Below are positions 13,072 through 59,453 of a stretch of 60,915 bases of DNA, in pieces. Under the pieces are notes generated by a model. It saw only the letters and a program-made list of their open reading frames with translations, was not told where the DNA came from and ran no database searches. How positions within the stretch are numbered: the first letter of the stretch is position 1; every line of letters begins with the position of its first letter. The DNA is from Chloroflexia bacterium (GTDB lineage Bacteria > Chloroflexota > Chloroflexia > QHBQ01). A program made the position numbers and the translations under genes. Where the stretch lies: NCBI GenBank assembly GCA_038230695.1, contig JBBRMT010000002.1:1-60915 (forward strand). The letters are read 5' to 3'.

Positions 13072-13203
13072 CAGATGGGCAATCCGTAAGATCTTGAAGG
13101 ATTACAGCAAGGTGGGTAAGCGGGAGTGATGATAGGGAGCTAATAAGGATGAGGGCTTGCTGAACCCTGGGCAATTACTATTAGGCTAATATTATAACAC
13201 AGA

Positions 13204-13410
13204 TTATCGCGAACCGTTTGCTAGTAGTTGCTGCTTGCAACGAGCATACTTAAGCGCTTCTGATGCCCTCTCTGCCTCATGCCTGAATTGATGTAGGGTT
13301 ATTGCGTTTAGTCGCGCTTCAATAGCAGCATGGCGGTGGGCTGGCTGCAGCAAGCAAATCCGGGTTTCGTCATCATTTTTATACTGGCATCGAAGACAAA
13401 TCATCACCAC
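13204..13410 (-). CDS. Small ORF resembling the zinc-ribbon N-terminus of the neighbouring TPR protein (possible remnant)
   Basis: MICLRCQYKNDDETRIC parallels MICFNCNTRNREAALIC of 11701-13071, but the second Cys pair is missing. Confidence 0.25.
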   Translation of the reverse strand: MVMICLRCQYKNDDETRICLLQPAHRHAAIEARLNAITLHQFRHEAERASEALKYARCKQQLLANGSR

Positions 13411-13656
13411 TTCGTTACATATTTGTTTATTGGGGAAATATCTGACACCAAAGTACCACCTGCACTATATCAAAAGCAATGCAAGATTGCAAGTGGGCAG
13501 CGTATCTGCAAGAATGAATCCACCAACCTCGCTGGTAGCCGATTGGCCTATATGCTAATTTGCTGGTATAATAACATAGGCAACCAACCCATAGAGTGAT
13601 ATTATATTTACCCATACCGTCTAATATGATCTTATCGGAAGGAAGGAATAACCTAA

Positions 13657-14049
13657 ATGTTTGAATTTGACGACAACCCGCGTCCCCGCCGCCAGGTAGA
13701 GGATGATATTGCCGACGATCGGGCGATGCGCGGAGCGGAGCGGCTGAAGCAGATCGCCGTTTATTACTACCCACACCAGCTGATTCCTCTCGATGAACAA
13801 CTATCGAAGATCAACAGCAAGACTCGCGCATACGATGGACTGAAAATCAATCGTAGCACCTACCTGCGGGTATGCGGCGAGGTGATGATGGAGCTAATGA
13901 ACGACCCCGACTTCGCTAAATCGCTGCTAGAGCGGCTATACGAGGAGAAGGAACTGGCCCAACGCCTAAGGGATAAGTTGCACGACCTACTCGGCCTGCA
14001 GAAAGCCTACAAGGACGGGCAGCTTGTGCCAAAGTTGGGCGACCTATAA
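13657..14049 (+). CDS. Hypothetical protein
   Basis: 130-aa ORF with protein-like charged/helical composition in an AT-rich stretch. No family recognised. Confidence 0.5.
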   Translation: MFEFDDNPRPRRQVEDDIADDRAMRGAERLKQIAVYYYPHQLIPLDEQLSKINSKTRAYDGLKINRSTYLRVCGEVMMELMNDPDFAKSLLERLYEEKELAQRLRDKLHDLLGLQKAYKDGQLVPKLGDL

Positions 14050-14190
14050 TCCTGCTCTTGATTCTTGCGGGCTAGCCCTGCTAGCCAATCAAACAAGGCC
14101 TGGCAGTAATAGCGAACCCATCAAAGTACCAGCCCATAATGCTTATTGCTGTCACCCTTTGACTTATTGCTCATCACCCTTTATTGCCAC

Positions 14191-14224
14191 CAACATACCA
14201 ATATGCTGTTATATTGGTATGTTG
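14191..14224. repeat. Perfect 14-bp-stem hairpin
   Basis: caacataccaatat-gctgtt-atattggtatgttg, immediately followed by TGgTATAAT (14223-14231). Confidence 0.8.
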
Positions 14225-14343
14225 GTATAATGTTAGGCTAATAGCAGACTCGGCATGACTTTGGTATATGACTACGTAACTTCTGATTTTCTATCTAGCC
14301 CATAGCTCACCCTCCGGAGATTTCCATTCAACCCCACTCAAGC

Positions 14344-16233: not shown

Positions 16234-19110
16234 TTATTCCTGCTCGAAGCTGCCAGCAATGCTCAACACGTAATTATCGGCGCTGAGATTGCGCTGCAAC
16301 GCCGTCTCGATGTCCGCGACCGTCAGGTTACTAACCTGCTCGATGTAGCGGCGCACATAATCGTCGCCCAGCTCGTAAAGTTCGATATCCAGCAGCAGGC
16401 GGCCAATGCCCGCTCCGGTTTCCAGTTGCAACGGCAGGCTGCCGGTGATGTAGCTCTTGGTGTTGCTCAGTTCCTCTTCACTAACCGGACGGGTGGTGAG
16501 GATATTGTTCATCTCCTCCAGGATACCGGCGATGGCCTTATCCACGTTAACCGGGTTGACCCCGGCTCGCACCACAAACGCGCCCTGACCGAAGCCACCT
16601 TCCAGGCTGCTAATACAGTAATAGGCCAACCCCTGTCGGTCGCGCACGTTCTCGCCCAGCCGCCCGTAAAGGCCCAGCCGCCCCAGGATGTAGTTGCCCA
16701 ACGACAGTGGGATGTAGTCGGGGTGCTTGCGGGGGATGCTGGGGAAGCCAAGCAGAATGTCGGCCTGGGTCTTGCCCGCCACCTCGCTGACTGCCTTCTG
16801 TGCGCCCCTGAGAGGCTCAACATCGGGAACTGTGTTCTGTGGCCTGTCTACAGTCGAATCCGACGCGCTCCAGCCTCCTAGCGCCTTCTGTAGCTCCGTA
16901 AGCGCATCCCCTGGCTCAATGTCGCCCACAACGACGATTGTGGTGGTGTCGGGGCGATAATAGTCGCGGTAGAATGCCAGCATATCATCGCGGCTGATCT
17001 GGCTGACTGTCTCAATGTAACCTGAGCTGCTGTAGTGGTAGGGGTGATTGGCGGGATAAGCTAGCTCATTGAACTTGCGCCCCGCCACGCTGCCGGTATC
17101 ATTCTCCCGCTCCTTCAAGCCGGTGAGCAGGTTGCCACGCACCTTCTCGATCTCCTCAGCCGGGAAGGTTGCAGATGTGAGCATCTCGGCAATTAGCCCG
17201 ACCAGGGTGGAAAAATCCTCGCGTAGCGACTTGCCGCCTACCTCGGCCATGTGCCGCCCGCTGCCCGCCCCCACGCTGAAGGCCAGGTCGTCGGTAAGCT
17301 CGTTAATCTCGGAGAAGCTGTGCGATTTGGTGCCACGACGCAGCATGGTAGCAACAAAGCTGGCAAGCCCGGCTTGCCGTGGCTGCTCGTATATAGAACC
17401 AGCGCGGAAGTTGGCAATCACGCTTACGCTGGGTACATCGTGTTTAGGGTACACTATTACCACGATGCCATTGGGCAGCACGCGGCGGGTGATATGCTCG
17501 GCGTTCAGCCGCGCCAACGCCTGGTCTTTTGAGGAGGTCTGAGATTTGAGGTTTGAGGTTTGAGTTGCAGGTGCTGGTTCAGCCGACAGGTCCATAGGTG
17601 CAGGCGGTTGCCCGCCCTGATGTGGGTCATCGCTATCAGGCGATTGGTAGAAGGCGTAGCCACGATGCGGATCGCGGTGGTTGGTGAGGTCAATGTCGGG
17701 GTCACTGCTGAAGTGCCGATGCCCGGCAGCAGCAGCGGCCTCCGCCTGGGCCATGCGTAGACGATCCTCAGCGGTCATTGGCCGGGGGCGGAACTCGCCA
17801 ATGGTGCGGTTGCTATTACGCAGGTATTTCTGCGCCACCCTCTGCACATCGGCCACCGTAACCGCTTCAAGATCGCTGAGATAATGGTCAAGCGCCTCAA
17901 AGCTGGATACAATGCCGAAGATGCCCAGCCAGTAGCCGCCATTGGTGACGCTCTCTGCGCTGTAGACGAACTGGGCCTTGGTCTGTTTGATCGCCCGCTT
18001 TAGCTCATCCTCGCTAACCGGATTGTTCACCACCTCGGCAATCACTGCGTCCATGGCCTGCTCGATCTGGGTTAGGCTGACTCCATCGCGGGCCATCGCG
18101 CTGAAGCTGAACAGACCGGGGTCAAGATTGAAGGTGAAGCCGCCTCCCGCTGAGACGGCAAGCTGGGTGTCCACTAGCGCCTTGTAGATACGCGCCGAGC
18201 GGCCAAACGAAGCGCCGCCGCCCATGCCCACCGCCGATGCGCCGCTGAGTACCGATTCGAGGATAGTGAGCGCAGCGGCATCGGGGTCGCTGGCCGCACA
18301 GGCATGATAGGCGGCCATCCAGAAGGCGGCCTGGCCGGGGCGCTCCACGATAACGCGACGTTCGCCTTCCTGCTCCGGCTCACTGCCGCGCACCGGCGGC
18401 GGCTCCGCGCCACGCGGGATGCTGCCGAAGTATTGGTTAACCTGCTGCTGCAAGGTAGCAGTGTCAAAGTCGCCCACCACCACGATGAAGGCATTGTTCG
18501 GCGCATAGTAAGTTCTATAATAGTTATAAAGGTCATCACGGTTGATTGCCCGTAGGTCGCTCTTCCAGCCAATAGTGTCGTGGTGGTAGGGATGAACCTT
18601 ATATGCTGCCGCCCTGACCTCCTCATCAAGCCACGACATGGGGCTATTCTCGCCCCCCTCACGCTCACTTATAATCACGCTGCGCTCACTGGCAACATCC
18701 TCCGGGTCAACCCGGGCGTTGACCATCCGATCGCTCTCAATCTGCAAGGAAAACTCATAACGGTCCGAGGGCAGGGTCTCGTAGTAGGTAGTGAAATCAA
18801 GCCAGGTGAAACCGTTGAGAGTGCCGCCATTCTGACTGACGATGCGATGCACATCGCCAGTTCGCAGCTTCTCGGTGCCTTTGAACAGCATATGCTCCAC
18901 CCAATGGGAGATGCCGGTGATGCCGTCAACCTCGTTGCGGCTGCCCACCCGATACCAGATCCAGAATGTAACAACGGGTGCAGCGTGACTCTCCTTGCTA
19001 ACAATGGTGAGGCCATTGTCCAGGGTGGTGACATTGACCCCTGCCATCAAGCCTTCGCTGGGGAGTGCGGGGTGCTGGGTGCTGGATGCTGAGTTATTTT
19101 GCTCGGACAT
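16234..19110 (-). CDS. M16 (pitrilysin/insulinase) family zinc peptidase, two M16 units fused
   Basis: HxxEH zinc motif GISHWVEHMLFKGT in the first unit, and a second M16-like half after a low-complexity linker (..PAPATQTSNLKSQTSS..). 958 aa. Confidence 0.85.
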   Translation of the reverse strand: MSEQNNSASSTQHPALPSEGLMAGVNVTTLDNGLTIVSKESHAAPVVTFWIWYRVGSRNEVDGITGISHWVEHMLFKGTEKLRTGDVHRIVSQNGGTLNGFTWLDFTTYYETLPSDRYEFSLQIESDRMVNARVDPEDVASERSVIISEREGGENSPMSWLDEEVRAAAYKVHPYHHDTIGWKSDLRAINRDDLYNYYRTYYAPNNAFIVVVGDFDTATLQQQVNQYFGSIPRGAEPPPVRGSEPEQEGERRVIVERPGQAAFWMAAYHACAASDPDAAALTILESVLSGASAVGMGGGASFGRSARIYKALVDTQLAVSAGGGFTFNLDPGLFSFSAMARDGVSLTQIEQAMDAVIAEVVNNPVSEDELKRAIKQTKAQFVYSAESVTNGGYWLGIFGIVSSFEALDHYLSDLEAVTVADVQRVAQKYLRNSNRTIGEFRPRPMTAEDRLRMAQAEAAAAAGHRHFSSDPDIDLTNHRDPHRGYAFYQSPDSDDPHQGGQPPAPMDLSAEPAPATQTSNLKSQTSSKDQALARLNAEHITRRVLPNGIVVIVYPKHDVPSVSVIANFRAGSIYEQPRQAGLASFVATMLRRGTKSHSFSEINELTDDLAFSVGAGSGRHMAEVGGKSLREDFSTLVGLIAEMLTSATFPAEEIEKVRGNLLTGLKERENDTGSVAGRKFNELAYPANHPYHYSSSGYIETVSQISRDDMLAFYRDYYRPDTTTIVVVGDIEPGDALTELQKALGGWSASDSTVDRPQNTVPDVEPLRGAQKAVSEVAGKTQADILLGFPSIPRKHPDYIPLSLGNYILGRLGLYGRLGENVRDRQGLAYYCISSLEGGFGQGAFVVRAGVNPVNVDKAIAGILEEMNNILTTRPVSEEELSNTKSYITGSLPLQLETGAGIGRLLLDIELYELGDDYVRRYIEQVSNLTVADIETALQRNLSADNYVLSIAGSFEQE
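17538..17570. repeat. Period-7 tandem repeat inside the M16 peptidase linker
   Basis: tctgagatttgaggtttgaggtttgagttgcag, translated on the minus strand as ..TQTSNLKSQTS.. Confidence 0.8.
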
Positions 19111-22386: not shown

Positions 22387-22893
22387 TTATCCGAATAGCC
22401 GTCTAAAGAATGTGAGGTAAAGAAAGAATATGACGGTAGGCGCCTGAAACAGCAAGGCGATGATAGCAACTCGCCGAGCAAAGCGAGGACTATCTGACTG
22501 ATTCTGGTAGGCAAGGGCTAGCCAGCTAAAGATAAGCCCAGGTAGGGTGGTAAAAATAGAGCCAAGAGACATGATACCCAGGCCAAATGCGGCCCCCAAC
22601 CTTCCAAGCCCTTCGACGTTTGGGTTTGTAGTCAAGGAGATATAAGCCGGTATAGTTTGATATGCAAGCAGGAGGGAGAGGACACCTGCAATCAGGCCAA
22701 TCATCGCAGATATGTCAGGCAAGTTACTGCGTTGCTCGACAGGCGACTGGGTAGCTGGGTCAAGGCTGCTCTGCGGCGCATCAGTTACGAGTGGTGAAGT
22801 TGGCTGCAGCGCAACATCCTCATCGCCATAACGTTCAACCAGATTAGGTGACGATTGTTCGAGCTTGACCAGTTCTGTCTTTGGTTCGTCCAC
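22387..22893 (-). CDS. Hypothetical membrane protein
   Basis: Acidic/Pro-rich N-terminus followed by 3-4 TM helices, directly downstream of the ExeA-like ATPase. Confidence 0.55.
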   Translation of the reverse strand: MDEPKTELVKLEQSSPNLVERYGDEDVALQPTSPLVTDAPQSSLDPATQSPVEQRSNLPDISAMIGLIAGVLSLLLAYQTIPAYISLTTNPNVEGLGRLGAAFGLGIMSLGSIFTTLPGLIFSWLALAYQNQSDSPRFARRVAIIALLFQAPTVIFFLYLTFFRRLFG

Positions 22894-22903
22894 CCAGTTG
22901 CTC

Positions 22904-23776
22904 CTACGCCTGATTTAGCTCACGGTACTGCTGGGTAAGGTTGTTGACCACATAGTTTACCACTTCGGCATCTATGCGGCGGCGGTCGAGGCGAGGAGCG
23001 ACATCGAAGCAGAGCGAACAGATGTTGACGATACTGCGGGGAACGCCACCAGAGTGACGGGTGATTAGCTCGATAGCCTCATCGGTGAACAGTTCAACAT
23101 TGTTGGCTAGCCCTGCGGTGTGCAGGCGATGATTGATTAGCTCCTTGACTTCGGCAGCAGTTTGCAGCGGCTCCAAGTTCCAGGTGAGGCGCACACGGCT
23201 ACCCAGATTGCGCTTCTTGGCAACCTTCTCCTGCAGTTCAAGCTGGCCGAAAACCACGATCTGCAGGATACGATGGTCATCTAGCGAGTAATTCAAGAAT
23301 ATGCGGAGGCGTTCGAGCGCGTCGTAGGATAGGCACTGGCCCTCGTCAACCAGCAGCAACGGCACCTTGCCTTCGCGGGCAGCCTTCTGCAAGAACAGGA
23401 TGAACTCGTTGGATAGCTCGCTGCGGGTGCTGCCCAGCGGTTTCTGCCCGAAGGCACGTAGCATCTCACGGGTAAACTCGGCATCGGTGGGCTGAGTGGG
23501 GTCGAGTACCTCGGCGACGATCAGGTTACTGAACAGGTCATTACCCATCACCCGACGGCGCAGCACGCTCAAAAGGCTGCTCTTGCCCAGGCCGATGTCG
23601 CCATAGACGATGGTCAGGCCACGCCCCCAGAGGATATGCTGGGTGAGCAGGTTCAGCACTTCCTTATACTGGTGGCCCTGGAAGAAGAAGCGGGCCGAGT
23701 CTTCGGGGTTGAAGGGGTCTTCCTTCAGCGAAGGGTGGAAGTAGGCCATTGCCAGCTTCTGATACTGACTTACCAT
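22904..23776 (-). CDS. ExeA/GspA-like AAA ATPase
   Basis: Walker A GDIGLGKSSLL, Walker B LLLVDEGQCL, FGQLELQEK...RVRLTWNLEPL and GGVPRSIVNIC follow the ExeA pattern throughout. Confidence 0.8.
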   Translation of the reverse strand: MVSQYQKLAMAYFHPSLKEDPFNPEDSARFFFQGHQYKEVLNLLTQHILWGRGLTIVYGDIGLGKSSLLSVLRRRVMGNDLFSNLIVAEVLDPTQPTDAEFTREMLRAFGQKPLGSTRSELSNEFILFLQKAAREGKVPLLLVDEGQCLSYDALERLRIFLNYSLDDHRILQIVVFGQLELQEKVAKKRNLGSRVRLTWNLEPLQTAAEVKELINHRLHTAGLANNVELFTDEAIELITRHSGGVPRSIVNICSLCFDVAPRLDRRRIDAEVVNYVVNNLTQQYRELNQA

Positions 23777-23828: not shown

Positions 23829-24128
23829 CTCGTTGACCGTTGAAATCGGTGCTGCAAGCTGATATAATTGGGTTACGCTTACATTGATGTCAATATTACA
23901 TCAAAACAGCGGTGCTGTCAATAGGGTTGACAGCGATGTTGCTGCTAATAGCAGGCGAGTATGTTAGTACGCTAACATACAATCAGAGTAGCAGCGATTT
24001 GACAACATCGCAGTTTGGGTTATAATATGTTCTACAGCAGCCCGCATGGCGCTGGCGCGGCTTTTGCACCTCAAAATAGGGCTGACGAACCCACCCCAAC
24101 CCCTACGGGCGGTAGGGGAACACAACGG

Positions 24129-24470
24129 ATGAGGACCATGGTAATTGCAAACGGCAAAGTGACAAGCTATACAAGCGGTGAGGCGCTGGCGATGCTGGCC
24201 GACATGGGCTACATCACCACGCCGCGCGTGATCCGCAACATCGAGCAGGAGCTAGGGCTGCCGATCAGCCGTGACCCCCAGCGCCAGCGCGTGTATACGC
24301 CGGAGGATGTGGAGCAACTCGCAGCCATTCTTGCGCTGCAAGAGGCGGGGTTGCGGCTTACTACCATCCACCGCATCCTGATTGAGCGCGACGTAGACGT
24401 GATCAGCTTCCACCGCGACCGGCTGCGGCACGCGCTCAGTATCCTTGAGCAGTTGAAAGTTACAAGTTGA
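24129..24470 (+). CDS. MerR-family HTH protein
   Basis: YTSGEALAMLADMGYITTPRVIRNIEQELGLPISRD..QRVYTPEDVEQLAAILALQEAGLRLTTI. The start is moved to ATG 24129 because the listed N-terminus is translated from a repeat hairpin. The last 5 codons and the stop come from a heptamer repeat. Confidence 0.65.
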   Translation: MRTMVIANGKVTSYTSGEALAMLADMGYITTPRVIRNIEQELGLPISRDPQRQRVYTPEDVEQLAAILALQEAGLRLTTIHRILIERDVDVISFHRDRLRHALSILEQLKVTS

Positions 24471-24551: not shown

Positions 24552-25520
24552 TTGCACTTGGTACATTCAAATTTCAAATCCCCGGAGGGGAAAGTGATTA
24601 ACTGGCTACAGGAGAAGGTGACGCAAACGCGGCCAGCGCCGATGGTGATGGCGGCGGGCGAACCGAAGCAGGCGAAGGCGGCGAACAAAGGGGCAGCGGA
24701 TGCTGCGCCCATCCCTGCGCCCAGGCTAGCGAAGCAGAAGCGGGCCGCCGATGGTGGCACGCGGATTATCGCTATCGCCAACCAGAAGGGCGGCGTGGGC
24801 AAGACCACCACCACCGTCAACCTGGGCGCGGAACTGGCGACCATGGGGCGGCGGGTGCTGATTATTGACCTCGACCCCCAGGCAGCAGCCACCTACTCGC
24901 TGGGCCACGACCCAGAGGGTATCACCAAAACCATCTACAACGCCTTCGTCAAGAAGGACGCGACCATGCGCGAGGTGATCCTGCCAACCAGTGTAGAGAA
25001 CCTTTCGATTGCCCCCGCCAATCTGGATCTGGCTGGTGCGGAACTCGACCTGATTCACAACTATACTCGTGAGCGGGTGCTGAAGGACGCGCTAGCGCCA
25101 ATAGCGGCGGATTATGATTACATCCTGATTGACTGTCCGCCCAGCCTGACCTTGCTGACGGTCAACGCCTTCGTCGCCAGCACCGAGGTGTTGATCCCGC
25201 TACAGACCCATTTGCTCAGTCTGCGCGGAGTAACGCGATTGCTTGAGACGATCAAAGAGATTAGCTCGCTGAATCCAACCCTGAAGGTGACGGGCATCCT
25301 GCCTACCATGTACGATGGGCGCAGCAACTTGAACCGCGAGATTCTGGCGACGATTAGCCAGGTGTATAGTGGACGAGTGTTCAAGAGCGTGATTCGCTAC
25401 GGAGTGGCCGCCGCCGAAGCGCCGGGGCAGGGCGTGCCGGTGCGTCTATATGCGCGGAGCAGCCCGGTGGCAAAGTGCTACGAGGCGTTGGCTAAGGAGA
25501 TTATTGCTGATGAGCGTTAA
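24552..25520 (+). CDS. parA: ParA/Soj partition ATPase
   Basis: IIAIANQKGGVGKTTTTVNLGAELA...VLIIDLDPQ is a deviant Walker A. The start is uncertain: GTG 24594 after GGAGGGG, or ATG 24642. Confidence 0.9.
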   Translation: MHLVHSNFKSPEGKVINWLQEKVTQTRPAPMVMAAGEPKQAKAANKGAADAAPIPAPRLAKQKRAADGGTRIIAIANQKGGVGKTTTTVNLGAELATMGRRVLIIDLDPQAAATYSLGHDPEGITKTIYNAFVKKDATMREVILPTSVENLSIAPANLDLAGAELDLIHNYTRERVLKDALAPIAADYDYILIDCPPSLTLLTVNAFVASTEVLIPLQTHLLSLRGVTRLLETIKEISSLNPTLKVTGILPTMYDGRSNLNREILATISQVYSGRVFKSVIRYGVAAAEAPGQGVPVRLYARSSPVAKCYEALAKEIIADER

Positions 25521-25583: not shown

Positions 25584-26567
25584 ATGAGCGCTGATCGAAG
25601 CAGTGGCAAGCCACGCAAGAGTCTGGTGCCGCAGAGTACCTGGCAGCGGTTGGCAGAAGCCAGCCCTGACGAGGGTACGCGCCCGCTGACCGGGGCCAAG
25701 CTGATCGAGACCAGCCGCGTAGTTGCCGATCCCAATCAGCCGCGCAAATATTTCGAGGCGGGCGGCATGGCCGAGCTGATCGCCAGCGTGCGCGAGCGAG
25801 GTATCCTACAGCCAATTACCGTGCAGCGGCAGGAAGATGGCAACTTCCGCATCATCACCGGCGAACGACGCTGGCGGGCGGCAAGCGCGTTGGAGATGCC
25901 CTACGTGCCAGCCCTGGTGGTGGAACTGAGCGACAACGAGGCCAGGCTCGATCGGGTAGTGGAGAACCGCCAGCGGCGCGGCTTGCGTGATTATGAGATG
26001 GCGGTGGCGCTACGCGAGATCAAGCGCGACCTGGGCCACGACAATCCGGGCATGAGCAGCAATGAGCTTGACGAATTGACCGGCAAGCAACTGGGCATGA
26101 GCGGGCGCAGCGTGCGTAACTTCCTGGCAATGATGAACGTGCCGCAGGAGATCCGCGACGAACTGGGCGAGGACTTCAGCGAACTGGCGACGCGCGGCAT
26201 ATCGCTACTACGAGACCACCCGGAGAAGCGCGATGCACTGGTGAAGGCGATCAAGAAACACGACCTGAGCGGGCGGCAGACGGTGGAACTGGCGCGGCTG
26301 CTGAACGACAAGCCGGGGATTAGCATGAACGATGCAATTGCCCAGGTGCAGAACGAGCCGTCGCGTCGCGCCGCGTTCGGAGGACGCAAATCATACATCG
26401 AGCTGGCAACCCGCATTAGCCAGGCGAATCGGCTGGTGGAGAATGGCGCGTTGGCGGCGGCCTCCGACCAGGAGCGCGATGACCTGCTGCGCCTCCTGCA
26501 ACCGCTAATCGAATTGCAACAGCAGATTGTGGCGGGCGATACGCGGCTAGGGCGGCGGAAGAAGTGA
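25584..26567 (+). CDS. parB: ParB/Spo0J partition protein
   Basis: PNQPRKYFE..L.ELIASVRERGILQPITV...IITGERRWRAA..L..VPALVVELSDNEA..VENRQR (ParB N-domain boxes), followed by an HTH region. Confidence 0.9.
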   Translation: MSADRSSGKPRKSLVPQSTWQRLAEASPDEGTRPLTGAKLIETSRVVADPNQPRKYFEAGGMAELIASVRERGILQPITVQRQEDGNFRIITGERRWRAASALEMPYVPALVVELSDNEARLDRVVENRQRRGLRDYEMAVALREIKRDLGHDNPGMSSNELDELTGKQLGMSGRSVRNFLAMMNVPQEIRDELGEDFSELATRGISLLRDHPEKRDALVKAIKKHDLSGRQTVELARLLNDKPGISMNDAIAQVQNEPSRRAAFGGRKSYIELATRISQANRLVENGALAAASDQERDDLLRLLQPLIELQQQIVAGDTRLGRRKK

Positions 26568-26609: not shown

Positions 26610-26784
26610 GGGGTCATCATGACCCCACTTGCCAACCAACCAGGGTCATGATGAATACAACGGAAAAGGAAACTGTACTCATAACAAGTATGGTTGGGGT
26701 AGCCGGTCAGGAACGAATGGCAACGGGTGTCATGATGACACTGCTTGGCTAGACAACAACCAGTGTCGTGATGACACTGCTTGG
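26610..26784. repeat. Four copies of a 15-17 bp palindrome G(G/T)GTCAT-S-ATGAC(C/A)C between parB and the next gene
   Basis: ggggtcatcatgacccc (26610-26626), gggtcatgatgaa (half-site degenerate, 26643-26655), gtgtcatgatgacac (26727-26741) and gtgtcgtgatgacac (26763-26777). Copies 3 and 4 share the flank ctgcttgg. Confidence 0.75.
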
Positions 26785-28549: not shown

Positions 28550-28811
28550 CGACCTGTCGAGGGGTAGAAAAAAGCGAGGAACGGGGGCCATCCATTCCTC
28601 GCCTTACTGACAATTTAGCCTTGAGCAGAAGAACGAACTTCCGGGCTGTGAGAGGGCATGAAAGTTCGAGCTTCGTCCGCTTCCTGAAAGCCATTGCTGG
28701 CTATCGGGCTGGAGTCCTGTTTGCCGCAGGTCTCTCTTATGTCTATATGATACTCTATGTCTGGCGACTTGTCAAGAGGTTTGGCTAATCACTTTCCATA
28801 ACAAAGGCAGT

Positions 28812-28838
28812 GAAAAGTTGAAAGTTGAAAGTAAGAAC
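28812..28838. repeat. Period-7 tandem repeat (AAGTTGA-type)
   Basis: gaaaagttgaaagttgaaagtaagaac. Confidence 0.8.
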
Positions 28839-28871: not shown

Positions 28872-28909
28872 AACTCAAAACTCAAAACTCAGCACTCAAA
28901 ACTTCAAGG
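28872..28909. repeat. Period-7 tandem repeat (AACTCAA-type, 5 units)
   Basis: aactcaaaactcaaaactcagcactcaaaacttcaagg. Confidence 0.85.
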
Positions 28910-28928: not shown

Positions 28929-30536
28929 TTGACGACACGGGTAGCGATTGAAACAGCGGTAGAGCAGGGAGAGACAACGGAGCAGGTGGCGGAGCAACGC
29001 AGCCCGGTGGTACATGGGCTGGGCGAATTGTCGCTGGCGCTGGTACGCGATTGGGCTCCGCTGCTCAAGCCCGCTGGGGTTGGCCTGCTCACCACCATCC
29101 ATGCGTGGGAGGAGCAGAACCCGCGTAGCCCCTTCTATGGCTGGATGCACCTGGCGCAAGAAACGCTGGCCGCCTATCTGGATATGGGGCGCACCAGCAT
29201 CATCCGCTATCGTAACCTGCTGGATACCTGCGGGCTGATCGAGCAACGCGAGGTTAGCTACCACCGCCCAGGGATGAAGCTGCATCAGACGGTGCTGCGG
29301 GTCAGTCGCGCCGAGGTGCAACCGTCGCTGCGGTTGCTTGAATACCTCATCTTCGAGGCCGAGGACTGGACCCGCAAGCACACCGCCTGGCTGATGACCA
29401 ACTTCCAGCCACCCAGGGACGACAGCGAACTGGGGCGGCTGATTGCCACGATGCGGAGGGCATACAAAGTGAGCGTTGGTGGCAGCGGTCTCGCGGTGAT
29501 CACCGATGGTGAGCGGCTGACGGCAGCGGGCAGCTTTGCCGCTCGCTTGTTGCAGCGCGAACTGGGCAACCAGCCAACCTTGCTGCTCGACGAAGTTGAA
29601 AGTGGGCGGGGAGTTGCAAGTTACAAGTTGCAAGTTACAACTGGTATGGCTGGCGAGAGCGTTGTTTCACCAGTGAACAATGGTAGACGAGAGATGGCGG
29701 TTGAACCATCGGCTACTTTCCCCATTGATGAAAGCAGTGTTTCACGAGTGAACAATGGTTCTGCCAGCGGTGTTTCAGCAGGAGTCGTTGGTAGGCAGGG
29801 CATTGTTTCACCAGGAGTCGCAAATAACGCTAACGTTTCTTTGGCTATTAACGTAAAGGATTCTAATAACGTTAACGTTGGCGGAGAGAGCGACTTTGCA
29901 ATTGCCACGCAGGGAGCCAGGCGGATTGCCGACGAGGGCAGCGTGCAGTGGCATATCGCCTGTCTGCAGCGGATGGGACGTACCCTATACGAGCAAGCGA
30001 TTGCCGCCACCGAGCGGGTGGTAGTCAGCGGCAAGCTGCGCGGTAAGAGCGGTGGCTACTTCACGCGCACTGCGATGGCCCTGGCGCAGCAGCAGGGCAT
30101 TGCGCTGAAGCAGGGCGGTGAAGCTGGCAGTTACAAGCTGAAAGTTGATAGTGGCAACAGCGTTGGTTCACCATTGAACAATGGTGTAAGCGCATCGCCA
30201 GCGACCTATCAGCCGAGCGATGTTTCACCATTGAACAATGGTGAGCAGGCAAACAGCGGCACGCCAACCCGAAGCTACACTCTGCCTGGGATGGCGGCGC
30301 GGCAGGCTTGGCAAGCCGCGTTGGCCGAGCTTGAGGCCCGCTTGAGCGGCCCAGCCTGGTTCGGTTGGCTGCGCCATGCCCACCTGCTGGAGCTTGAGGG
30401 TGACAAGGCGGTGGTCGGTACGCCCAGCGGTGGTCTAGCCGAGGTTATGACCCGCCGCCACGCCGCCGAGGTAGTCGAGGTGATGAGCGCGGTGCTGGGG
30501 CGGGCAGTAAGCGTGGAGTTTGTGACCCGCTGGTGA
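28929..30536 (+). CDS. Putative replication-initiator-like protein (N-terminal wHTH-like region, C-terminal DnaA-N-terminal-like domain) with repeat-encoded linkers
   Basis: The C-terminus WQAALAELEARLSGPAWFGWLRHAHLLELEGDKAVVGTPSGGLAEVMTRRHAAEVVEVMSAVLGRAVSVEF follows the DnaA_N pattern. A ..GGYFTRTAMALAQQQGI motif is common in phage/plasmid replication proteins. The two linkers are translated from DNA repeats (VSPVNNG, VSRVNNG, GSPLNNG, VSPLNNG). Confidence 0.55.
   Translation: MTTRVAIETAVEQGETTEQVAEQRSPVVHGLGELSLALVRDWAPLLKPAGVGLLTTIHAWEEQNPRSPFYGWMHLAQETLAAYLDMGRTSIIRYRNLLDTCGLIEQREVSYHRPGMKLHQTVLRVSRAEVQPSLRLLEYLIFEAEDWTRKHTAWLMTNFQPPRDDSELGRLIATMRRAYKVSVGGSGLAVITDGERLTAAGSFAARLLQRELGNQPTLLLDEVESGRGVASYKLQVTTGMAGESVVSPVNNGRREMAVEPSATFPIDESSVSRVNNGSASGVSAGVVGRQGIVSPGVANNANVSLAINVKDSNNVNVGGESDFAIATQGARRIADEGSVQWHIACLQRMGRTLYEQAIAATERVVVSGKLRGKSGGYFTRTAMALAQQQGIALKQGGEAGSYKLKVDSGNSVGSPLNNGVSASPATYQPSDVSPLNNGEQANSGTPTRSYTLPGMAARQAWQAALAELEARLSGPAWFGWLRHAHLLELEGDKAVVGTPSGGLAEVMTRRHAAEVVEVMSAVLGRAVSVEFVTRW
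29612..29640. repeat. Period-7 tandem repeat inside the Rep-like ORF
   Basis: agttgcaagttacaagttgcaagttacaa (translated VASYKLQVTT). A second block, cagttacaagctgaaagttgatagtgg, lies at 30128-30154. Confidence 0.85.
29661..29825 (+). repeat. parS-like/iteron-like repeats 1-4 (inside the Rep-like ORF)
   Basis: tgtttcaccagtgaacaatggt (29663), tgtttcacgagtgaacaatggt (29738), and degenerate tgtttcagcaggagtcgttggt (29771) and tgtttcaccaggagtcgcaaat (29804). Confidence 0.8.
30162..30242 (+). repeat. parS-like/iteron-like repeats 5-6 (inside the Rep-like ORF)
   Basis: tggttcaccattgaacaatggt (30164) and tgtttcaccattgaacaatggt (30221). Confidence 0.8.
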
Positions 30537-30553
30537 GGCAGTTCTGAGTTTTT

Positions 30554-30577
30554 GTAGGGGCGGATTGCGTCCGCCCT
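30554..30577. repeat. GC-rich hairpin repeat, family A (GTAGGGGCGGATTGCGTCCGCCC)
   Basis: Near-identical copies lie at 30637-30658 and, inverted, at 2141-2164. Confidence 0.85.
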
Positions 30578-30596
30578 GAGTTTTGAGTTGGAAAGC

Positions 30597-30834
30597 GGTG
30601 TTTCAACAATGATCACTGGTTGGATAACCGATTATTGTAGGGGCGGATTGCGTCCGCCTGCGTGGTGATAAAAAGGCAGTGTTTCAGCAGTGAACAATGG
30701 TTGTGTGACCACGCACTGTATAATCGCATGGCATACGCCCTGCTGCCGTTGTTATCACAGCAGTGTTTCACTGGTGAACAATGGTGAGAGGTAGGTTTGA
30801 GACAGAAAAGCGATGTTTCACTGATAAACAGTGG
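30597..30834 (+). repeat. parS-like/iteron-like repeats 7-10 (intergenic, downstream of the Rep-like gene)
   Basis: tgtttcaacaatgatcactggt (30599), tgtttcagcagtgaacaatggt (30679), tgtttcactggtgaacaatggt (30763), tgtttcactgataaacagtgga (30813). A possible inverted partial copy, atggtgaaac, lies at 30861. Confidence 0.8.
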
Positions 30835-30886
30835 AAATTGGTTGCGCTACATATAGCATTATGGTGAAACTTGTGATACAATAGCT

Positions 30887-58748: not shown

Positions 58749-59453
58749 CTAGCCAATGTCCAATCCTGCACGGTCTGCGATAGCCTGCAGAGTGGCCTGC
58801 TCCTTGCGCGTATCAGCGCTCATCTCGCCGAAATCGTACAGCGCATCGCGTAGCACACCGCCGACTATGTTGGAGTCAATCTGCCCGTTGCGTAGCGACT
58901 GGATCGCCTTATTCAACAGGGTGCGTACCTGATTGCGCTCCTCGTTACTGATGTCCTGGCGGTCGAACAGGCTGTTGCTGAGTTGCAGCAACGCTGCGGA
59001 CATCGCTCTTGCTTGAGGAGCGACAGCAGCTGCGTTGCCTGCTGCATAGCTTTGATTGATGCCACTGCCAACCGCAACATTACCTTGATTGTTGCTGATG
59101 TCGCCAGCGCGGATGTTGGTCTGGCTGCCGCTACCGCTGTTCACCCCACCCTGCACCCCACCGTAATTGTGTACGCCTCCCTGCACCCCACCATAATCAT
59201 TGATGCCGCCGCTGCCAGTGCTAACGTTGCGGTTGCCGATAAACTGGTCGCGGCCTGAGTTGAACTGGCTGCCGGTCACGTTGTTCTGCGTGCCGGTCAC
59301 GTTGTTCTGCGTACCCTCGATGTTGTTGGTCGCGCTATTGTCATTGAAGTCGCCTCCGAAAGAAGCCTTGCCCGGCACATTGACCTGGCCGAAGCCGCCG
59401 CTGATGCCACCTTGCTGTCCCGCGTTGTCCTTGTTACCTTGATCCTCGCTCAT
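58749..59453 (-). CDS. Gly/Asn-rich repeat protein, hypothetical
   Basis: Repeats TQNNVTGTQNNVTGSQFN and YGGVQGGVHNYGGVQGGVN, with a helical C-terminal domain. Confidence 0.55.
   Translation of the reverse strand: MSEDQGNKDNAGQQGGISGGFGQVNVPGKASFGGDFNDNSATNNIEGTQNNVTGTQNNVTGSQFNSGRDQFIGNRNVSTGSGGINDYGGVQGGVHNYGGVQGGVNSGSGSQTNIRAGDISNNQGNVAVGSGINQSYAAGNAAAVAPQARAMSAALLQLSNSLFDRQDISNEERNQVRTLLNKAIQSLRNGQIDSNIVGGVLRDALYDFGEMSADTRKEQATLQAIADRAGLDIG

Follow-up and report, generated by a model that had tools for sequence, protein, structure and literature searches.

A candidate replication origin embedded in the gene of its putative initiator in a Chloroflexia replicon

In phage lambda, the origin lies in the interdomain-linker DNA of gene O, where direct sites with dyad symmetry are each bound by a dimer and adjoin an AT-rich region, and the C-terminal domain of the O protein recruits the helicase complex. 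Plasmid P1 has an extra iteron cluster outside its minimal origin, incA, which acts in copy control. In the staphylococcal RepA_N plasmid pSK41, the N-terminal domain of Rep binds direct repeats ('Rep boxes') in the centre of its own gene, the central, ori-encoded Rep domain is a dispensable linker and a counter-transcribed RNA controls rep (PMC5703833). The repABC systems of alphaproteobacteria, which are found on megaplasmids and secondary chromosomes, consist of parA-like and parB-like genes, an antisense RNA gene and an initiator, and oriV lies inside repC by an A+T-rich stretch (PMC3155836). Chromosome 2 of Vibrio, a replicon with housekeeping genes, is maintained from an iteron origin of plasmid type that has a ParAB system of its own (PMC6090056). 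The sole cultured member of Chloroheliales has two chromosomes, one chromid and two plasmids (PMC10972752), and nothing was found in the literature searched on the maintenance of multipartite genomes in Chloroflexota. This work deals with a repeat-bearing gene of that phylum, here named repX, and with the partition genes linked to it, in a stretch of 60,915 nucleotides (60.9 kb) from a Chloroflexia bacterium (assembly GCA_038230695.1, contig JBBRMT010000002.1) that is called the window throughout.

The repX gene (28929..30536, + strand) is an open reading frame (ORF) for a putative initiator of 535 residues, RepX; its TTG start codon and GGAGG Shine-Dalgarno sequence are both kept in the closest relative, locus L001. 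Inside the gene and just after its stop codon there are direct repeats of 27 bp, which we regard, from the sequence evidence, as the probable iterons of an origin embedded in and after its own initiator gene.

Iteron-like repeats in and after repX

Strong copies of a 22-mer begin at 29663, 29738, 30164, 30221, 30680 and 30764, and weaker ones, with 2 mismatches, at 30599 and 30814, all of them recognised by sequence match on the + strand. The initial annotation had counted ten copies; copies do stand at the sites it gave, except that 29771 and 29804 hold the left half only, as variants of the form TGTTTCAsCAGGAGTC, a variant that is itself kept in the orthologous loci L001 and L002. When up to 2 mismatches are allowed, TGTTTCACNNGTGAACA has 7 matches in the window against 0.03 expected; they all fall on the + strand, within 29663-30830, and none of 100 shuffles reached 7 matches. 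A looser pattern adds the copy at 30599 and nothing convincing elsewhere in the 60.9 kb. No copies were detected in the window outside the repX locus or on the - strand, and in the related metagenome-assembled genome (MAG) GCA_025355955.1 the exact pattern is likewise restricted to the repX locus. The 22-mer repeats are real and non-random. An inverted partial copy that had been proposed at 30861 matches over ~10 nt only and is probably due to chance, since it is absent from L001.

The repeat itself holds as first described, but the unit is longer than 22 nucleotides. It is the 27-mer AGCRnTGTTTCAsCAGTGAACAATGsT, a consensus pooled from 39 copies in six loci; repeat extension also showed a longer unit. 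The 27-mer contains two overlapping dyads, an inner one (TTCAC-NN-GTGAA) and an outer one (AGCAnTGTT / AACAnTGCT), which suggests that it is bound by a dimer.

Between 8 and 10 copies on the + strand are packed inside 1.2 kb in three clusters, and direct repeats are likewise clustered at the locus in five orthologous loci. Two classes are distinguished among the loci compared: the window, L001, L002, L022, L023 and L024 make up class A, and L005, L007 and L025, together with proteins P0007-P0014, make up class B. Cluster 1 (29651..29825, +) lies in the DNA for the first of two linkers of the protein, with full copies at 29663-29683 and 29738-29758 and the left halves at 29771 and 29804; it has orthologues at the same position in L001, L002, L022, L023 and L024, and an unrelated repeat takes its place in L005, L007 and L025. 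Cluster 2 (30152..30242, +), in the DNA for linker 2, consists of copies at 30164-30184 and 30221-30241 that are 57 bp apart, a spacing kept in L001, L002, L023 and L024. Cluster 3 (30587..30835, +) is non-coding and lies within 350 bp after the repX stop codon; it includes the copies at 30599, 30680, 30764 and 30814, of which the first and the last are degenerate.

Judged by their sequence, these repeats are selected as DNA, both inside and outside the ORF. It had been noted that the copies are translated as the recurring peptide V/G-S-P/R-V/L-N-N-G, and indeed all four full copies inside the ORF are read in a common frame. Repeat copies also persist past the repX stop, with four in the window, two in L001 and two in L024; those of L001 sit in a frame that contains TGA, the annotated ORF of L023 reads through the normal stop into two downstream copies, and one copy in L007 (class B) is out of frame. 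Serine is encoded by TCA throughout the repeats of the window and L001, whereas in the rest of the gene TCA accounts for 5-9% of Ser codons. The core GTGAACAATG is kept in L002 at 42% overall protein identity, and the flanking bases AGCR and sT, which fall outside the peptide core, are conserved. An extra, out-of-frame iteron was seen in L025 (10078-10092) at the extreme 5' end of the annotated repX, which hints at either autoregulation or a mis-called start codon.

RepX, its linkers and the proposed origin

An AlphaFold2 model of RepX built on ten homologues predicts an N-terminal winged helix (residues ~35-215), a first disordered linker (196-319), a middle domain with a confident 4-helix structure (320-390), a second disordered linker (396-447) and a C-terminal domain (450-535) with an alpha-alpha-beta-beta-alpha-beta, KH-like fold. 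The two in-ORF repeat clusters lie exactly within the two predicted disordered linkers. The C-terminal domain has the fold of DnaA domain I, as the initial annotation had proposed from the sequence: Foldseek matches it to 4tps_B (DnaA domain I) at an E-value (E) of 2.3e-5, with a TM of 0.90 and a root-mean-square deviation of 1.1 A, and also to DciA and to domains I-II of H. pylori DnaA. The RepX family profile finds DnaA domain I in the PDB at 1.3e-6, and an exhaustive search with this profile recovers genuine DnaA proteins as well as HTH_36+DnaA_N proteins. The single RepX sequence scores 12.7 bits against Pfam DnaA_N, below the cutoff of 24.6.

The N-terminal domain has weak winged-helix matches to MarR, RTP, RctB domain 1 and the Rep-DNA complex 5kbj, and it scores 16 bits (E = 0.01) against HTH_36 (PF13730), whose cutoff is 25; a distant match that was found via the C-terminal domain, P0027, has HTH_36 plus DnaA_N. 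Whole RepX has no match in Pfam, NCBIfam or PHROG, and tblastn found it neither in 72,556 PLSDB plasmids nor in 50,697 GenBank phages. In addition, no Pfam match to a RepA_N domain was obtained, with the N-terminal domain searched to E 10; RepX may act like a RepA_N initiator, yet it is not a member of that family. Exhaustive HMMER searching of 1.8 billion representative proteins gave ~16 relatives at E < 1e-30, all of them annotated as hypothetical proteins and all from Chloroflexia/Chloroheliales MAGs, and a second, word-based search together with a metagenome scan added almost none. RepX is an undescribed combination of domains confined to one lineage of Chloroflexota.

An AT-rich block with (T)AACGTT/TAACGCT repeats (29816..29881, +) contains the lowest-GC 60 bp of repX and is a candidate DNA-unwinding element. 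In all six loci examined the corresponding block is the GC minimum of repX, lies directly after cluster 1 and has (T)AACGTT repeats that are translated as N-V-N-V; its GC content is 33% against 60% for the gene in the window, 28% against 61% in L002, 43% against 70% in L005, 40% against 66% in L007 and 42% against 67% in L025. In the window it is translated as NANVS..NVK..NNVNV. Valine is encoded by GTT or GTA in 23 of the 29 codons inside the block as against 67 of 236 in the remainder of the genes (p = 1.5e-7, Fisher test), and the AACGTT motif is, by this codon comparison, maintained at synonymous sites.

RepX and the repeats also change together. Class A carries the 27-mer (TGTTTCA..TGAACAATG), whereas class B has, in the same place in linker 1, an unrelated dyad repeat, (GAG)TCCGCA-N4-GCGGA, translated as E-S-A-x-x-G and present in 8-9 copies in L005 and L007 and in 6 in L025. 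For RepX, the predicted recognition helix of class A is GRT[ST]I[IV]RY[RC] and that of class B is SQD[ST]IARY[ST], whereas that of ParB (SGR[ST]VRNF[LM]AM) is near-identical across the classes (SGRSVRNFLAMM and SGRTVRNFMAML).

A small RNA gene, transcribed away from repX, lies upstream of it (28568..28775, - strand) and was recognised by its promoter, terminator and conservation. The promoter, TTGACA-17-TATCAT at 28775-28747, is near the sigma-70 consensus (11 of 12 positions in a promoter scan), and the predicted transcript of ~173 nt runs from ~28740 to 28568, where a strong terminator hairpin and, after it, a run of T residues form its end. This stretch is ~99% identical to L001, against ~88% for the flanking coding DNA. 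Promoter (with TATCAT or TATGAT as -10 element) and terminator are present in all six loci whose upstream region was examined (window, L001, L002, L005, L007 and L025); the terminator lies 170-190 nt past the promoter, and its stem shows compensatory changes between loci. The small RNA has no match in Rfam up to E 10. An internal hairpin keeps its loop, GCCCUCUCA(C/U)AGCC, and differs in its stem between the window and L002. In class B the small RNA gene fills the parB-repX intergenic region, the position that the counter-transcribed RNA has in repABC (PMC3155836).

From these features we infer binding of the repeats by RepX, unwinding, helicase recruitment, copy control and origin activity. 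The origin would consist of cluster 1 and the adjoining AT-rich AACGTT block, both in linker 1 DNA, and the iterons would be repeated sites for RepX dimers. The N-terminal winged helix would bind the iterons, the bound RepX would melt the AT-rich block as the unwinding site, and the C-terminus, similar to DnaA domain I, would then recruit the replicative helicase or its loader and so replace DnaA at the origin. Clusters 2 and 3, like incA of P1, would have a role in copy control, through titration or handcuffing. The small RNA, being counter-transcribed, would control repX by limiting its expression, and ParA and ParB would partition the replicon via a different conserved site, possibly a 16-bp palindrome upstream of the par operon.

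The iteron reading, which the initial annotation had offered as one of two, is supported indirectly by the joint change of repeat and recognition helix, by the adjoining AT-rich block and by the selection at the DNA level, and it is favoured over the parS reading. Several observations weigh against it. The iterons are irregularly spaced, at 33-84 bp, against the tight arrays of ~22 bp of classic iteron plasmids. No known Rep family is matched significantly by the N-terminal domain of RepX, and the middle domain alone (predicted local distance difference test score, pLDDT, 85) has no structural match in the PDB, the best hit having E = 1.8. The co-variation of RepX and repeat rests on a single phylogenetic split between class A and class B, so that it is suggestive and not proof. 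Finally, the minimum of the cumulative GC skew is found at 14.5-18.5 kb, ~12 kb to the left of the repeats; in a window of only 60 kb, which is too short for a decisive test, this either counts mildly against the model or tells nothing.

Other candidates were considered and rejected. The middle domain of RepX was ruled out as DnaD-like, as it has no PDB match better than the one already given. A DnaA-box cluster or oriC at the repX locus was likewise ruled out: the window has 8 near-consensus boxes against 8.3 expected, and none of them lies near the gene. Near the skew minimum there is a low-GC islet (13100-14300, ~50% GC) with an ORF of 130 residues (13657-14049), a tandem repeat of 21 bp (14142-14182) and sequences that strongly resemble promoters; it was rejected as a possible oriC, since it has only the small ORF and promoter-like sequences and no DnaA-box array.

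Rival readings of the repeats

RepX could also be a sequence-specific DNA-binding regulator or a DnaA-interacting factor, the repeats being operator or titration sites and the locus no origin at all; such sites might serve autoregulation, or an effect on DnaA or the helicase by way of the domain-I-like module. A winged helix and co-varying repeats imply only a probable pair of protein and site, not replication; domain I of DnaA serves as a hub for interactions with proteins (PMC5448010); the repeats are away from the GC-skew minimum; and a large replicon with housekeeping genes may have an ordinary oriC elsewhere. Nevertheless, an AT-rich block beside the iterons that is kept at synonymous sites is hard to square with an operator, none of the ten sites of the window is at the repX promoter, and parAB and an antisense RNA are tightly linked to the gene, as in a classic replicon cassette (PMC3155836, PMC5703833), so that a purely regulatory role seems unlikely.

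A second possibility is that the repeats form a clustered, divergent parS-like centromere for the ParB encoded 3-4 kb upstream, with RepX as a mere host gene. Direct-repeat arrays in which each repeat has a dyad resemble sopC of the F plasmid. The left arm of the repeat, TGTTTCAC, is identical to the half-site of canonical parS, and the linkage between parAB and repX is constant, the genes being immediately adjacent in L005, L007 and L025. Besides, the window contains no match to the canonical 16-bp parS, TGTTNCACGTGAAACA, when up to 3 mismatches are allowed, and ParB must then bind something else. It is also known that in repABC systems parS can sit directly after the repC stop (PMC3155836).

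However, the evidence from ParB and from the repeat makes a centromere at this site unlikely. The ParB recognition helix stays near-identical where the repeats share no sequence. Residues K171, R173, N178, G201 and R204 of ParB read parS, and R173 is invariant (PMC7383237); when the window ParB is aligned with Spo0J, Noc and H. pylori ParB of the PDB, it shows GMSGRSVRNF against the canonical GKSRxxxANx, that is, M in place of K171 and G in place of R173, with N178 kept (Caulobacter numbering). Nor is the parS half TGTTTCAC, which the initial annotation had described as exactly kept, the conserved core: 23 of the 39 copies have its final C (that of CAC), L002 has TGTGCCAC, and the left arm is the less conserved of the two. 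The conserved core of the class A repeat is the right arm, which is no parS half. Compared with the parS palindrome, 2 bp are inserted in the repeat, its right arm is shorter and its central C varies.

A region that suits the conserved helix-turn-helix better lies upstream of the par operon and is conserved in all lineages. This regulatory region of ~150 bp between the AAA_22 gene and merR (23866..24030) contains, in this order, the 16-bp near-palindrome TTACATTGATGTCAA, TGTCAA-N5-TTGACA, ATGTTAGTACGCTAACAT and the promoter of the par operon (TTGACA-17-TATAAT). Its mean column identity is 73% over the class A and class B loci, and it is also found in L025; the near-palindrome reads TTGACATTGATGTCAA in L005. 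The region emerged by alignment across loci, and an automatic search for a palindrome with 7-bp arms common to all loci found none. From its sequence the region may be an operator or the true centromere, and it is the better candidate target for the conserved helix-turn-helix proteins, ParB or the MerR-like protein.

The remaining reading, in which the repeated linker peptide V-S-x-V-N-N-[GA] (E-S-A-x-x-G in class B) is the functional unit and the DNA is its by-product, or a local or dispersed selfish repeat, appears highly improbable: although the four full in-ORF copies of the window use one frame, the motif is found across all class A proteins and the linkers also accept genome-wide heptamer repeats, the repeats continue in non-coding DNA past the stop and in other frames, their codon identity is fixed, the conserved bases AGCR and sT lie outside the peptide core, and neither the rest of the 60.9 kb nor that of the relative's MAG has any copy.

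Genomic setting and known systems

The repX module has a characteristic order, with a small ORF and the AAA_22 gene on one strand, and a MerR-like gene, parA, parB, at times some variable genes, and repX on the other; this neighbourhood is conserved in every locus with enough upstream sequence (L001, L002, L004, L005, L006, L007 and L025). In the window, parA (24552..25520, +; Pfam AAA_31, CbiA and ParA) encodes a ParA/Soj-type ATPase with an N-terminal extension, whose best NCBIfam match is the plasmid partition protein RepA, under cutoff. The parB gene (25584..26567, +; Pfam ParB_N, PDB alignments) encodes a protein of the ParB/Spo0J superfamily with a GERRxRA motif and the divergent helix-turn-helix GMSGRSVRNFLAMM, which is conserved across both repeat classes. 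The MerR-like gene (24015..24470, +; Pfam MerR_1) is the first of the par operon, and a gene is present at this position in all loci. The divergent AAA_22 P-loop ATPase gene (22904..23776, -; Pfam AAA_22, TIGR03015-like below cutoff) is kept in L001, L002, L004-L007 and L025, and adjoins a small membrane-like ORF (22387-22893).

Two variable genes separate parB from repX in the window, one P22-antirepressor-like and the other a tetratricopeptide repeat (TPR) gene. Between parB and the antirepressor-like gene, at 26611-26777, there are 3-4 copies of a 15-bp palindrome (GTGTCATGATGACAC / GGGTCATGATGACCC); its exact core, GTCATGATGAC, was found among the other loci compared only in L001, which also has the antirepressor-like gene. 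The inserted antirepressor and TPR genes probably have their operators in these palindromes.

The flanks of the module are partly syntenic down to 42% RepX identity, and the window also encodes aconitase, fabG/fabD/fabF and further housekeeping genes. In a class B genome (L025) the module lies within a contig of 224.7 kb (JBPCPV010000015.1, at 62-84 kb), 10 kb from smc and rsfS, and P0159 and P0165 are encoded on contigs of 111-129 kb. The idea that this locus is the maintenance centre of a replicon is supported, but its variant as a plasmid-prophage remnant is not: because of the synteny to 42% identity and the housekeeping neighbours, the module is better seen as a stable feature of a large replicon than as a recent prophage or plasmid remnant. 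Concerning the database copies P0162, P0170-P0175 and P0182-P0184 and the loci L022, L023 and L024, many are truncated at ~264-268 residues or lie on contigs of 2-4 kb, from which it follows that metagenome assemblies often break at or near repX, with the repeats as the cause of the breaks.

Other repeats are found around those of repX. Two exact copies of a REP-like hairpin, GTAGGGGCGGATTGCGTCCGCC, stand amid cluster 3 (30554-30575 and 30637-30658, +), so the hairpins are interleaved with the 27-mers as the initial annotation described; nevertheless, they are outside the repeat unit. A third exact copy occurs at 2143-2164 on the - strand, which makes the hairpin a dispersed element that is probably not part of the origin, and at the orthologous position in L001 it is missing. 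Similar GTAGGGGC... hairpins were seen in the intergenic DNA of L001, L005 and L007.

Tandem Repeats Finder detected a heptamer block of AGTTGCA/AGTTACA before cluster 1 (29612..29640, +) and similar blocks at 30128-30154, 30575-30595, 28814-28832 and 28872-28903. These blocks had been taken as part of a composite unit with the iterons. They are real, but the unit is composite only locally, because heptamer arrays (STRR-like, with varying units) are common between the genes of the window, e.g. at 17534, 20257, 20331, 23790, 24451 and 53964, and because the block before cluster 1, which is present in the window, L001 and L007, is missing in L002 and L005. Heptamers are translated within the repX linkers, and also in L007/P0009 with the unit CGGATTG, so that the linkers behave as non-coding DNA towards them. 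A 21-bp tandem repeat with 2-2.7 copies and up to 100% match was seen at 59259-59327, inside an ORF (58749-59453, -) that has no Pfam match.

Taken further, and as a tentative proposal built on sequence comparison, Chloroheliales and related Chloroflexia may have a domesticated second chromosome, or a large chromid, that replicates independently of DnaA, with this module as its origin and initiator. In that case RepX would represent a new class of initiator, with a site-specific winged helix and a DnaA-domain-I/DciA-like module that recruits the helicase, the origin in its own linkers, and an iteron specificity that has been swapped entirely between sublineages while partition stayed constant; we see this as possible rather than probable. 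The locus offers Chloroflexota a testable candidate for a non-DnaA origin with its initiator, copy-control RNA and partition system. Besides, it exemplifies how a function at the DNA level is imposed on disordered protein linkers, how iteron specificity is replaced within one protein family and how the DnaA domain I module is reused outside DnaA, and the AACGTT block together with the iterons could mark such origins in MAGs.

Chromosomal ParB-parS is approached by the repX locus in the left arm TGTTTCAC and in the ParB_N/GERRxRA protein encoded nearby. It differs in the insertion of 2 bp, the short right arm and the variable central C of the repeat, and in a ParB that lacks K171 and R173 and does not co-vary with the repeats. 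Vibrio chromosome 2 and P1 share with it the iterons, ParAB and the extra clusters, and there is a weak structural match to RctB domain 1; however, RepX has no homology to RctB or P1 RepA, its putative origin is inside the gene, and neither DnaA boxes nor a Dam-site logic were detected.

The order parA-parB-antisense RNA-rep, with the proposed origin inside rep, is that of repABC, and the best NCBIfam match of ParA, below cutoff, is the partition RepA. On the other hand, RepX bears no relation to RepC, iteron arrays have not been described for repC origins, the phylum is another one, and the repX module has a leading MerR-like gene, a linked AAA_22 gene and an RNA of ~170-190 nt instead of ~55 nt. 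The RepA_N system of pSK41 has repeats in the linker DNA of the initiator and a counter-transcribed RNA as well, and there is a weak structural match to 5kbj; the differences are that RepX has no RepA_N match in Pfam, that it has two repeat linkers plus a cluster after the stop and that its sites are dyad-symmetric. Moreover, the C-terminal domain of pSK41 Rep interacts with DnaG, whereas that of RepX is like DnaA domain I, and the host of RepX belongs to Chloroflexota, with a large replicon that carries housekeeping genes. Lambda O has the same layout, with iterons and then an AT-rich stretch in linker DNA; the lambda sites are four tight 19-mers, against copies 33-84 bp apart in three clusters at repX, which is not in a phage context, and no sequence or profile similarity was found between RepX and Phage_rep_O. 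By analogy, then, the repX system would work like the origins of lambda O, RepA_N and repABC, while falling outside all three families.

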